A program made the translations under genes and the position numbers. A stretch of DNA of 64,000 bases. Origin: an uncultured Solirubrobacterales bacterium. GTDB lineage: Bacteria; Actinomycetota; Thermoleophilia; Solirubrobacterales; 70-9. Below are positions 28,473 through 41,790 of the stretch, piece after piece (position 1 is the stretch's first letter; each line of letters begins with the position of its first letter). The notes under the pieces were generated by a model that saw only the letters and a list, made by a program, of their open reading frames with translations, had not been told where the DNA came from and did not search any database. Location of the stretch: assembly GCA_963739545.1 (NCBI GenBank), contig CAVUAT010000011.1, positions 536,317-600,316 of the forward strand, written 5' to 3'.

Positions 28473-28513
28473 GACGGAAAATGGCGACCCTCCCCGAAGG
28501 AGAAGGTCGCCAT
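28473..28513 (-). terminator. Intrinsic terminator downstream of the displaced tRNA-Met 3' fragment
   Basis: The minus strand reads ATGGCGACC-TTCTCCTTCGGGGAG-GGTCGCCAT followed by TTTTCC. It lies 18 nt after the tRNA-fragment end. Confidence 0.6.
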
Positions 28514-28531
28514 GTGCAGGGCTTTCACAAA

Positions 28532-28574
28532 TGGGCCGGGGTGGACTCGAACCACCGACCGACGGATTATGAGT
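28532..28574 (-). repeat. Direct repeat of the 3' part of tRNA-Met (att-like site, distal end of the island)
   Basis: 42 of 43 nt are identical to 41717-41759 (TGGGCCGGGGTGGACTCGAACCACCGACC[G/T]ACGGATTATGAGT). Confidence 0.8.
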
Positions 28575-29069
28575 TCTGCGCTAGGCGTGCAGCGTCAAGC
28601 CGGCAGGTGTGTATTCCGTGCCTACAGGGCCGCTCACGTGGTCTGAGTTTTCGGCAGTTCGGGATACGGTTCGGGATACGGATTTCGTCCTCCGACAACC
28701 ATCGCGTTTGCATCGAAAGCGGCAGTCCCCTAGACCGATGTCCCCCGACGCTGCTTAGCCACTGAGCGTGCTGATCAGGCACCAGCCCAGGAACTTCACG
28801 CCTGGTGGCGACCGCTACCGAGAACCCGAGTGCAGCGCAGCTTCGAAACCGCATATCCGGTCTGGTCCCTGCAAATGAAGCCCCAGAAATTGCCGGCTTC
28901 CCAGCCGCCACCTCAGAACCACTCCCGGGCCACAGTCTTGGGGCTCTTGCAGCCGATGTTCTTGGCATGGACGTTTGTAGTAACCGGCTCCTCCGCCCTT
29001 TTGGTCGCCGCAGTTCTTCCGCTTGCCCGCTGAGGGGGACGGCGCTGGCGAGCAACGCCAGACTCATGC

Positions 29070-29489
29070 TCAGCCCTCGGGAAGTTGAAAGACGGTCATC
29101 GGAAGCTCGAATCGGTGCTGCACGGCATCGGTCAAGCCACGCTCCTGCCACCCTGCTCGGTCCTCCGCTCGTAGGCCGATCAGGATGTGGTCCGGGCGAA
29201 ACGACCGAATCGCGTCCTCGAACGCAACAAGGGGGTCGTCGGCAGCGACCGTTCCCGACCCGGATCCGCCTACCTCTTCGATCTGACCGAGGACAACTTT
29301 CAGACGCTCGTCGGCCTGTTGGGTCGCTTTGTCGGTCGCTGAAGCCCACCATTCGAATCTCGCGGGCAACGTGGGTGCGATCACGTAGATCTCCTCCGCC
29401 GATGCGATGAGGGCCCGGACGCTGGGAGGAAGATCAGCTGCGTCTCCGGCCGCCTCGCCGGCGGCGATCAAGAGGCGTGTACCGGCCAT
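29070..29489 (-). CDS. Hypothetical protein, Usp-like fold suspected; paralog of 34372..34824
   Basis: 139-aa ORF that is the last gene of the sigma/anti-sigma operon. It shares PSVRA..E.YV.AP...EW...ERL...GTV..D...F..D.I.I....W.ER.L with the 34.4-kb gene. Confidence 0.5.
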   Translation of the reverse strand: MAGTRLLIAAGEAAGDAADLPPSVRALIASAEEIYVIAPTLPARFEWWASATDKATQQADERLKVVLGQIEEVGGSGSGTVAADDPLVAFEDAIRSFRPDHILIGLRAEDRAGWQERGLTDAVQHRFELPMTVFQLPEG

Positions 29490-39943: not shown

Positions 39944-41055
39944 ACCGCCTGCAGCACCTCCAGGACGCCGGGGTGTCGATCTGGCTGGACGACCTCTCCC
40001 GAGAGCTGCTCGACAGCGGCGAGTTCATGCGCTATGTGCGAGAGCTCGCGGTGACCGGAGCGACCTCGAACCCGACGATCTTCGCCAAGGCGATCACGCG
40101 CTCGGACCTGTATGACCCCCAGATCCGCCGCGCGCTTGATCTGGGCCTGAGCGATCCGCGGGAGATCTTCTTCGAGCTCGCTCTGGAGGACGTCCGCCGC
40201 GGCGCCGACAACCTGCGCGCGGTCTACGAGCTGAGCGACGGCCGCGATGGCTTCGTCTCCTTCGAGTGCACCCCCGACCTCGCGGACGACGCGAATGCGA
40301 CCGTGAAACAGGCGCTGGACGTCTGCAATCGAGTGAACGTACCCAACCTCCTGATCAAGGTCGCCGCGACCGACGCCGGGATCACCGCGATTGAGGAGCT
40401 GACGGCGCGCGGCGTCAGCGTCAACGTCACTCTGCTCTTCTCGGTGCGCCGCTACGAGCAGGCGATCGACGCATATTGGAGCGGCCTCGAGCGCCGGCTG
40501 GGAGTCGGCAAGCCGGTCGTGGAGATCTCCTCGGTGGCGTCCTTCTTCGTCTCGCGGGTCGACACGATCGTCGACCCGTGGCTCGCGCCCGACTCGCCAC
40601 TGCGCGGGCGAATCGCGATCGCAAACGCCCAGATCGCCTACGCGCGCTACATCCGGTCCCTCGAGAGCGCGAGATGGAAGGACCTCGCCGTTCGCGGTGC
40701 CACACCGCAGCGCCCGCTGTGGGCGAGCACCGGCACGAAAGACCCCGACTACTCCGACGTCCGCTACGTCCAAGAGCTGATCGCCCCGGGTGTGATTAGC
40801 ACGGTCCCGATCAAGACGCTTCAAGCCTTTGCCGACCATGGTGACGTCGGCGCCTCACTCGGCCGCGACGCGATCCGCGCCCAGCGGCTACTCGGCGAGC
40901 TGGCCGAGGCCGATATCGACTTCGCTGCGATCACGGACGAGCTCGAGCGCCGAGGCGTCGACTCCTTCCGCGATTCCTATCGCGAGCTGTTGGCCTGTAT
41001 CGAGGCGAAGACCTCCGAGGTGAGCGCCGGCGCTCTTGAGGCTGTCCATGCCTAG
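39937..41055 (+). CDS. tal: Transaldolase (long actinobacterial type)
   Basis: Starts MVNRLQHLQDAGVSIWLDDLSRELL...VTGATSNPTIFAKAI, with NLLIKVAAT. Its start overlaps the reductase stop (ATGGTGA). Confidence 0.9.
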   Translation: MVNRLQHLQDAGVSIWLDDLSRELLDSGEFMRYVRELAVTGATSNPTIFAKAITRSDLYDPQIRRALDLGLSDPREIFFELALEDVRRGADNLRAVYELSDGRDGFVSFECTPDLADDANATVKQALDVCNRVNVPNLLIKVAATDAGITAIEELTARGVSVNVTLLFSVRRYEQAIDAYWSGLERRLGVGKPVVEISSVASFFVSRVDTIVDPWLAPDSPLRGRIAIANAQIAYARYIRSLESARWKDLAVRGATPQRPLWASTGTKDPDYSDVRYVQELIAPGVISTVPIKTLQAFADHGDVGASLGRDAIRAQRLLGELAEADIDFAAITDELERRGVDSFRDSYRELLACIEAKTSEVSAGALEAVHA

Positions 41056-41105
41056 CGGAATGACCATTTCGCCCATGGTCGTAGGCCGTCTTTCCGCGGG
41101 AGCCT

Positions 41106-41771
41106 GTGGGGGATGGCCGATCCCGGCCATCCAGAAAGGAGCCACCATGTCTTCGGAAGTCGCGATACCAACAACCGCAACGCGCCCACCCGCGCCCTGG
41201 GCACCTCTCGGGCTTGCGCCTTCGCGTTCGCGGGCGCGCCCACGAGCTCGACAGAGCGCTCGCCGGCAAGGTCCGATCGGTGCCGATGGTCGATCAGGCC
41301 GCCCGGGCCCTCGACCAGCTGAGCCGCAGGCAGCGGTGGACCGGCGAGAACGATCTCGTATTCGTGAACGCGGTCGGCGGCGTGGTCGAGGACTCCCGCC
41401 CTGCGGCGGCGCTTCTACGCCGCCCTGAAGGCAGCGGAGGTGCCCCGCCTGCGCTTCCACGACCCCGGCACACGTTCGGGACGCTCGCCGTGCAGGCCTT
41501 CGCGCTTTCCGATGTGAAGGCCTACATGGGCCACGCGGACATTCAGACGACCATGCGCTACGTCCACCACGTGCCGCAGCACGACGCCGCCGAGCAGCTG
41601 ACCAAGCTCTTGCAGGAGCGCACCGAGATCGACGTTGGGTGCGCGCCGGGTGCGCGCGACTTAGACAACGAGAGGGGAGCGGAGGCAGAAAGCCCGCCTG
41701 AGCGGGCAATTTCTGATGGGCCGGGGTGGACTCGAACCACCGACCTACGGATTATGAGTCCGCTGCTCTGA
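41106..41771 (+). pseudogene. Tyrosine-recombinase (phage-type integrase) remnant, C-terminal catalytic part only, frameshifted
   Basis: Reads ...RSVPMVDQAARALDQLSRRQRWTGENDLVFVN... then, in another frame, LRRRFYAALKAAEVPRLRFHD, then RHTFGTLAVQAFALSDVKAYMGHADIQTTMRYVHH. The N-terminal half is absent because tal ends at 41055. It abuts the 3' end of tRNA-Met. Confidence 0.7.
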
Positions 41772-41790
41772 CCAACTGAGCTACCGGCCC
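41717..41790 (-). tRNA. tRNA-Met (anticodon CAT; elongator-type or possibly Ile2)
   Basis: The minus strand folds as a cloverleaf: GGGCCGG TA GCTC AGTTGGTC AGAGC A GCGGA CTCATAA TCCGT AGGTC GGTGG TTCGAGT CCACC CCGGCCC A. No CCA is encoded. Confidence 0.85.

Follow-up and report, generated by a model that had tools for sequence, protein, structure and literature searches.

A probable degenerate genomic island at a tRNA-Met gene of an uncultured Solirubrobacterales bacterium

The window analyzed here is a 64-kb stretch of DNA (64,000 nucleotides) from an uncultured Solirubrobacterales bacterium. It contains an intact tRNA-Met gene and, 13.2 kb away, a second copy of the 3' part of that gene, which raises the question of whether the DNA between the two copies arrived as an element that recombined with the tRNA. 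The first-pass annotation of the window had proposed that an element inserted into the tRNA at its 3' end and regenerated the gene. That proposal was borne out, with corrections, by occupancy polymorphism among relatives and by the attachment site (att) geometry of the integrase family, and a C/A difference at tRNA position 44 fits it. Positions 28575-41715, which we label island A, are best explained as a degenerate genomic island inserted site-specifically by a tyrosine integrase into the anticodon-loop-to-3'-end segment of tRNA-Met, a reading to which we assign a probability of roughly 0.87. Related loci are designated by L numbers. The sequence family consists of long-read metagenome assemblies with indel noise, and single frameshifts need to be read with caution.

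The target tRNA, its repeated 3' part and the integrase remnant

The tRNA-Met gene (CAT anticodon) lies on the minus strand at 41717-41790. As first annotated, it is intact: it was called by ARAGORN and matched Rfam RF00005 with 76.6 bits. ARAGORN found two tRNAs in the window, the other being a tRNA-Asn at 47726-47800. The tRNA-Met gene recurs, together with its right flank, in L001-L005 and L008. A repeat finder detected a direct repeat between 28531-28574 and 41716-41759, with 43 of 44 nt identical, the same orientation and a spacing of 13,185 nt; it had initially been described as a 43-nt repeat with 42 identical positions. The proximal copy (41716-41759, minus strand) reaches from the tRNA 3' end to the anticodon loop, and the distal copy (28531-28574, minus strand) is a displaced tRNA 3' fragment. 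A pattern search with up to three mismatches found only these two copies of the 44-nt repeat in the window, and no match arose in 100 dinucleotide-preserving shuffles. The distal copy is not part of a second functional tRNA, as 28531-28574 was not called by ARAGORN and had no Rfam match even at E ≤ 1.

The sole mismatch between the repeats falls at variable-loop position 44, which is C in the displaced fragment and A in the intact tRNA. C44 is also found in the intact tRNAs of the sister species L008 and L009 and of strain L003. This footprint is suggestive only, but it is as expected if the 3' part of the present tRNA gene is element-derived. The tRNA-Met at 41717-41790 would then be the regenerated integration target, with its 3' 43 nt derived from the island.

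A tyrosine integrase remnant comprising the catalytic domain only (41190-41771, plus strand) adjoins the 3' side of the tRNA. The open reading frame (ORF) at 41106-41771(+) matched positions 63-171 of the 172 in the PF00589 profile; its 36.6 bits exceed the curated cut-off of 27.1, and the HxxR, H and Y motif region is recognizable. Reading in three frames gave the blocks KVRSVPMVDQAARAL..., LRFHD|RHTFGT and GHADIQTTMRYVHH, which connect only through at least two frame switches, near 41397 and 41462. In tblastn, positions 41262-41768 aligned solely to residues 259-427 of a 427-aa homologue in L014. A truncated, frameshifted tyrosine recombinase had been proposed at this position, and that description holds. 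It had further been said to lack its N-terminal half; the protein is truncated, but the loss is larger, covering the N-terminal ∼258 residues (∼60%) and the upstream excisionase gene. The transaldolase gene (tal) ends at 41055, ∼150-200 nt before the integrase homology begins. At its other end the integrase reading frame runs antisense into tRNA-Met through the 44-nt core, and the C-terminal peptide ...TRT..LRIM.PLL, encoded antisense to the tRNA, is conserved between the remnant and L014.

Comparison of L002 with the window over 40875-42000 revealed no indel, and the integrase frames are identical in this independent assembly. L001 is noisier, with a ∼100-nt poly-C artefact and many G/C indels, and differs from the window by four indels in the integrase region; the truncation is common to all three assemblies. 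Judged by its reading frames, island A holds the relic of an integrase and not a functional gene. With int truncated and the excisionase gene (xis) absent, while the att repeats are nearly intact, the island is probably immobile and has probably lost self-excision. A trans-acting integrase paralogue may exist elsewhere in the genome, beyond the 64-kb window.

A frame-repaired version of the remnant, used as a query, retrieved 2,718 homologues, of which those with a source name are called integrases. In L014 the integrase consists of a 171-aa SAM-like N-terminal part and a 256-aa catalytic part (427 aa in all), with an HTH_17 excisionase-like gene upstream. The gene is convergent on a tRNA-Met, overlaps that tRNA at its 3' end, and has a perfect 44-nt repeat at a distance of 10.2 kb. 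Two further cases came from scanning species-representative genomes. In L019 an integrase homologue is likewise convergent with, and overlaps the 3' end of, tRNA-Met, and perfect 44-nt repeats in the same register stand 9.5 kb apart; TCTG again comes directly after the distal copy. L018 has a 43-nt repeat with copies 7.4 kb apart in a tandem array. The arrangement in L011 is also tandem, with an integrase stub adjoining SnoaL genes. The tRNA-Met islands of related integrases in other Solirubrobacterales thus span 7-10 kb, with 43-44-nt repeats in the same register. Because the L014 and L019 homologues share both the convergent overlap and the repeat register, the repeat in the window can be tied to site-specific integration.

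Most of the 80 loci obtained with the integrase query were set aside as evidence on the tRNA-Met subfamily. They belong to a broader clade in which int is co-oriented and lies downstream of other tRNAs (Thr, Lys, Arg, Ser, SeC, Glu, and Gly). Many distant relatives in L020-L097 (roughly 35-55% identical) have a co-oriented tRNA ∼100 nt upstream of the int start, which may be Thr, Lys, Arg, SeC, Glu, Gly, or Met. The convergent, overlapping tRNA-Met geometry seems to have been derived within a single subfamily. This subfamily targets two different CAT-anticodon tRNAs (window 41717-41790 and L014 10714-10791); they have the anticodon arm GCGGAnTCATAATCCG in common and are either elongator Met or possibly lysidine-modified Ile2.

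Some 500 bp of lower-GC non-coding DNA had been noted just inside the distal repeat, and this was confirmed. The distal arm of island A (28575-29069) has 62.0% GC, contains no ORF with a Pfam match, and holds two tandem copies of GTTCGGGATACG. L009 has a tRNA fragment of its own, 6.2 kb from its tRNA. Immediately inward of that fragment, ∼110 nt are ∼80% identical to window 28575-28687, and the sequences diverge beyond the fragment (in blastn, L009 19697-19848 matches window 28687-28533). Because these ∼110 nt resemble the distal arm of the independent L009 island, the low-GC stretch is a likely conserved att arm with putative binding sites for the recombinase or accessory proteins.

Occupancy of the locus among relatives

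Relatives were collected as contigs encoding a protein identical or nearly identical to the 348-aa protein right of the tRNA and were aligned to the window; L016 and L017 were fetched through an island B protein (below). The 348-aa protein has thousands of homologues, the named ones from Solirubrobacterales and, in one case, Actinomycetota. In L001, itself part of a 2.38-Mb contig, and in L002, the match to the window extends unbroken downward from 54 kb, past the tRNA, the integrase stub and tal. L016 and L017 have the 4.6-kb island B, the displaced tRNA fragment and island A in window order. The block is therefore carried by three independent assemblies of the same species, namely the window, L001/L016, and L002/L017.

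Strains L003 and L004 do not have the block, although their flanks are 98.4-99.1% identical to those of the window. L004 is 99.0% identical from 54048 to 41716, the exact 3' end of the tRNA, and rejoins the window at 23862; between these points it has 2.9 kb of unrelated DNA encoding a GAF-SpoIIE phosphatase and an ion channel. In L003 the match ends at 41750 and resumes at 23872. Among strains with 98-99% identical flanks, the 23.9-41.7 kb block is thus present or absent as a whole, and occupancy does vary in close relatives. In the sister species L008 and L009, whose flank protein is 87 and 83% identical, respectively, synteny extends up to the tRNA, and entirely different genes follow its 3' end. 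The DNA downstream of this tRNA-Met is an integration hotspot.

An empty tRNA-Met site in related genomes had been suggested as a check on the insertion, and this was answered in part: the exact junction was not found, and the nearest case is that of L003. There an intact tRNA (the C variant) is directly followed by a homologue of the flank beyond the displaced fragment, 76-78% identical and with shared blocks such as AGAGGGCAACGRAAAGGGCAATA. Of the junctions compared, this one seems closest to an unoccupied site. The flank below 28530 evolves fast, being only 76-78% identical even in a conspecific strain. The same contig has a further peculiarity at 12260-13731, where only the 5' 41 nt of the tRNA remain at the native position and, after a further 1.36 kb, there is a complete copy of tRNA-Met. 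The 1.36 kb encode a C-terminal fragment of a different tyrosine recombinase (HSLRRT...LGH...VY type). This arrangement corresponds to the minority "5'-fragment" type of island, with the same crossover point in the anticodon loop.

A fuzzy search, queried with the 33 nt at the tRNA 3' end, brought up a third, more decayed copy of the tRNA 3' part (23903-23935, minus strand). It has two mismatches (31/33 identical), and weaker similarity continues through the anticodon-arm region to ∼23947. Homology with L003 and L004 returns 40 nt beyond this fragment, at 23862-23872. Between the two displaced fragments lies island B (23936-28530, plus strand), which by Pfam matches and ORFs contains five SnoaL-like genes, a gene for a secreted 191-aa protein, and a cupin gene. 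Island B retains no integrase and is absent from L003 and L004. Reading from the tRNA, the 13.1-kb island A accordingly comes first, then fragment 1, the 4.6-kb island B, fragment 2, 40 nt, and the conserved chromosome. From the third tRNA fragment it follows that the locus is a tandem array, with island A and the older island B at one tRNA-Met.

The GC content is 66.7% in island A and 64.6% in island B, the lowest of the region; the left and right flanks have 68.6 and 70.6%, respectively. Mean GC at third codon positions (GC3) is 0.81 and 0.82 in islands A and B and 0.87 and 0.89 in the flanks; the difference between each island and the flanks has a Mann-Whitney p of about 5e-4. A check of GC and codon usage suggested at the outset thus placed both islands below their flanks, and the shift is modest but consistent.

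The displaced fragment is directly followed by a minus-strand hairpin with a 15-bp stem and a UUUUCC tail (28475-28513, hairpin 28481-28513). A simple terminator scan omitted this hairpin, whose tail has 4 U in 8, and folding was applied instead; the 70 nt at 28462-28531 fold with −31.3 kcal/mol (z = −4.0). A second, GC-rich palindromic hairpin (41692-41707) occupies the gap between the integrase remnant and the tRNA 3' end. It is terminator-like in both directions and island-supplied, and the minus-strand fold of 41670-41716 has −17.7 kcal/mol (z = −3.0). The statement that only the distal copy is followed by a terminator therefore needs amendment: the 28481-28513 hairpin is real, but the intact tRNA has a hairpin as well. 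Nor is the displaced terminator the native chromosomal one, as had been supposed. It belongs to the proximal end of island B, where 28475-28513 is the terminator of the tRNA gene as it was before insertion of island A.

These features are consistent with the following sequence of events. A 44-nt copy of the tRNA 3' part would have been present in the attP site of the element. When this site recombined with the tRNA in the chromosome, an intact gene would have been regenerated at the integrase end (41717-41790), its 3' part element-derived and carrying A44, and the original 3' part (C44) would have been displaced by 13.2 kb together with the terminator that then followed it (28531-28574 plus 28475-28513). 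The site would have been used earlier, the displaced terminator being the tRNA-proximal end of the older SnoaL/cupin island (23936-28530), whose distal end is marked by the third tRNA fragment (23903-23935). A later deletion would have taken the excisionase gene and ∼60% of the integrase, and the rest would have gained frameshifts.

Several observations lie beside this account. A SnoaL gene of island B (27705-28091) is flanked by an 83-nt direct repeat, 98% identical (window 27587-28144). Together with 40 nt upstream (427 nt in all) it is 98.8% identical to a copy at L015 9961-10387, which stands in a wholly different genomic context in another genome, with the homology ending exactly at the stop codon. 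The gene looks like a cassette-like unit or a very recent transfer. L010, from another metagenome lineage, has at 12942-16864 a seemingly complete integrative element at the neighboring tRNA-Met site, with a 397-aa integrase, an HTH_17 excisionase and an AAA_25/primase-like protein; this element adjoins a stub from the present integrase family. Left of the islands, the conserved DNA (17166-23832) encodes a DUF2090 protein, a tandem universal stress protein, the trehalose synthase TreT and GAPDH. It resembles a stress or dormancy neighborhood and is present in island-free strains, and its GC falls to 64.7% over 21000-23900. On the other side, a c-di-AMP (ydaO-type) riboswitch (42445-42585, minus strand; 80 bits against a gathering score of 38) lies directly upstream of an NlpC/P60-like gene (41854-42447) that adjoins the tRNA. 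An exact look-up of the ORF at 41854-42447 gave no match, probably on account of a different start codon.

Cargo and operator-like sites of island A

Beyond the distal arm, island A begins with a gene on the minus strand for a 139-aa hypothetical protein (29070-29489). It is followed by a sigma-70 family, ECF-like sigma factor gene (29846-30556, minus strand), identified by a PF08281 match of 33.4 bits and by the gene calls on L016, and by an overlapping 82-aa ORF (29602-29850, minus strand) that comes after the sigma gene and may encode an anti-sigma factor. A plus-strand block (30790-34152) comprises a gene for a DoxX-like membrane protein with a weak Pfam match (30790-31269), an ORF of uncertain status (31315-31938) and a gene for cytochrome oxidase subunit I (31972 to ∼34000), identified with Pfam and interrupted by several frameshifts in the window. 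A tandem-domain universal stress protein (34913-35890, PF00582, E = 3.7e-33) and a DUF488 protein (35887-36243, from gene calls on L001 and L016) are also encoded on the plus strand.

A two-component system follows on the minus strand, consisting of a NarL/LuxR-family response regulator (36256-36915) and a histidine kinase with HisKA_3 and HATPase_c domains (36915-37910), both assigned with Pfam. In a sequence search of the PDB, the closest solved structures to the response regulator were NarL, VraR and DevR, all at about 1e-31 to 1e-33. Since these three score equally, a finer assignment within the NarL family was dropped. The remaining genes, on the plus strand, encode a ferredoxin-reductase-like FAD/NAD oxidoreductase (38645-39943; PF07992, E = 1.2e-67; PF14759) and transaldolase (39916-41055; PF00923, E = 2.2e-72).

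The cargo is a coherent stress/redox module. An earlier description of it as free of housekeeping genes was loose: tal and the cytochrome oxidase subunit I gene are of housekeeping type, although at this locus they are dispensable. Neither the Pfam annotation of island A ORFs nor the gene calls on L001 and L016 revealed FtsK-like Tra, Rep or type IV secretion genes, and no phage structural, packaging or lysis genes were found in the Pfam annotation of the island. By gene content, island A is neither an integrative and conjugative element, including the actinomycete type (AICE), nor a prophage.

The frameshifts in the oxidase gene were considered as a sign of island decay, and this was rejected. 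Substitutions between the window and L016 number 0-3 per kb throughout, apart from 32.2-33.8 kb, within the oxidase gene, where ∼58 per kb (6%) and 17 indels were counted. In L016 the gene is read as one 475-aa and one 165-aa ORF. The frameshifts are probably assembly noise or a local consensus problem, and the confined divergence may reflect paralogue interference in consensus polishing, or gene conversion. In the oxidase region 32250-33810 the AT skew is also strong, and GC3 is 0.97.

Seven palindromes with the pattern ATGGGG-N5-CCCCAT, recovered as repeat families D2/D3 and by a position weight matrix scan, are spread over 30640-38388. They lie on the plus strand at 30640, 31343, 31919, 34017 and 38366, with more degenerate copies at 34855 and 37984. 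Four of them continue with CGAC and, ∼17 nt on, with a GAyCAT hexamer. Each palindrome is located upstream of a transcription unit, the kinase-regulator operon included, and promoter-like matches occur at 31360 and 38383. The best scores of the matrix scan across the window were all inside island A, and the pattern had no match in 1.56 Mb of other Solirubrobacterales loci. From their position and distribution the palindromes are putative operators of a regulon private to the island, most plausibly controlled by the NarL-type regulator. It is conceivable, if doubtful, that island A is a portable self-contained regulon; a family of cargo-only xis-int islands specific for tRNA-Met genes of Solirubrobacterales would then bring in the two-component system and the sigma factor along with every promoter that they target.

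Alternative histories and known systems

Several observations weigh against insertion of island A as a single site-specific event. The exact empty junction, an intact tRNA fused to 28530 and the DNA downstream of it, was found in no contig, and an exact-match scan of JGI metagenome contigs for the tRNA 3' end joined to the flank from 28530 downward gave no matches. L004 and L005 have A44 without island A, so the C/A footprint is not exclusive to this island. The compositional deviation is modest. The assemblies are indel-prone, and of the two frameshifts in the integrase, that at 41395-41397 is missing from L001. In addition, a tblastn search with all island A and island B proteins against 90 related loci revealed no sibling island with the same cargo. 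As island A shares no cargo with other islands of the integrase family, its original extent is uncheckable against an intact sibling.

The last of these points bears on the alternative that survives best, in which the 13 kb are a composite remnant of at least two successive integrations whose internal att sites and integrases were deleted, so that stub and cargo may be separate arrivals. Reuse of the tRNA site is evident in the fragment at 23903-23935, in the tandem arrays of L011 and L018 and in the other contents found in every relative, and a deletion beside the integrase is certain because tal abuts the catalytic stub. We nevertheless regard a composite origin as unlikely, since the seven operator-like sites over 30.6-38.4 kb link most of the cargo, including the Pyr_redox-tal operon beside the integrase, and since 28575-41715 contains no internal tRNA fragment at up to four mismatches in 24 nt.

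Far less probable is that the 13 kb are an old chromosomal segment lost differentially from L003 and L004, with the 44-nt repeat an unrelated relic. It is true that L003 and L004 hold other DNA, with a GAF-SpoIIE phosphatase and an ion channel, in place of islands A and B, and thus display replacement, not a clean empty site or a simple insertion or deletion, which also counts against the insertion of island A as we read it. However, the segment is absent from the sister species L008 and L009, its GC3 is below that of the flanks, the repeat has exactly the length and register that the integrase family makes elsewhere, and the stub is in the canonical position. Mis-joining of the metagenome-assembled genome at a repeated tRNA, such that island and chromosome flank are not contiguous, finds some encouragement in the long-read errors (the poly-C tract of L001, the indel-rich oxidase region) and in the fact that contig L005 stops right at the tRNA, but it is scarcely credible, as both junctions read through continuously and the order tRNA, island A, island B, GAPDH was assembled independently in at least three samples, one of them inside the 2.38-Mb contig.

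Read as a site-specifically inserted island, island A closely resembles the islands catalogued by Islander, which are tyrosine-integrase islands in tRNA and tmRNA genes, with a PF00589 integrase of neither Xer nor integron type, and which include an anticodon-centered "A" sublocation (Hudson, Lau & Williams 2015; PMC4383910). In that catalogue 3' fragments accompany 3760 of 3919 islands and 5' fragments 159 of 3919; 2083 islands have anticodon-centered sites, and 125 tandem arrays are recorded (PMC4383910). Because the Islander filters need an integrase gene for each island of a tandem array (PMC4383910), they would call at most one island at this locus. Island A likewise has a regenerated tRNA at one end and a same-orientation displaced 3' fragment at the other, the relic of a PF00589 integrase inside and beside the tRNA, a crossover from the anticodon loop, and a place in a tandem array. 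It differs in that its integrase is a truncated, frameshifted stub, that island B has none, and that the host is an uncultured member of the Solirubrobacterales.

AICEs such as pSAM2 and SLP1 also insert in the 3' part of tRNA genes. Shared features are the actinobacterial host and, in the intact relative L014, a xis(HTH_17)-int module at the tRNA-proximal end. Unlike AICEs, neither island A (by Pfam) nor the L014 island (by gene calls) has a Rep/prim-pol or FtsK-like transfer gene, and both look like cargo-only islands.

In the myxophage Mx8, attP is located inside the int gene, and integration alters the C-terminus of the integrase IntP. The window and L014 integrase frames similarly run antisense through the 44-nt core into the tRNA. 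Because the frame crosses the att core, the 3' end of int would differ between the integrated and the excised form. Here only the last ∼20 integrase codons overlap the core, and any functional consequence would be hypothetical.

The DevR/DosR dormancy regulons of mycobacteria combine a HisKA_3 kinase and a NarL-family regulator with universal stress proteins and redox enzymes. Their operators are GC-rich palindromes (GGGG-N-CCCC type) before each unit, the regulator operon included. Island A has a comparable set of a kinase and a NarL-family regulator, stress and redox genes, and repeated palindromes that include the regulator operon. Its regulator, however, is no nearer to DevR than to NarL or VraR, no GAF domain was detected in its kinase, its motif differs from the DosR box, and the whole candidate regulon lies on a strain-variable island. 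The likeness to DosR is a functional analogy only.

The mechanism is a textbook one, and island A is an ordinary kind of genomic island that differs from the Islander anatomy only in its decay; current concepts are unchanged. The locus gives a clean example, at the level of a population, of a hotspot for integration at a tRNA in an uncultured and little-studied order of soil actinobacteria. Behind this one tRNA-Met, co-occurring strains and sister species have at least four different contents. With its predictable 43-44-nt att site, the integrase subfamily could help to delimit islands in Solirubrobacterales metagenome-assembled genomes or could serve as a tool for site-specific integration. 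The cargo suggests that complete regulatory circuits, with sensor, regulator, operators and targets, travel as islands. If island A is a portable regulon, the genes under its seven private operators would be those for a spare subunit of a terminal oxidase, a stress protein, a ferredoxin reductase and a transaldolase, and a single recombination step between co-occurring strains would suffice to gain or lose a complete sensory-response circuit.

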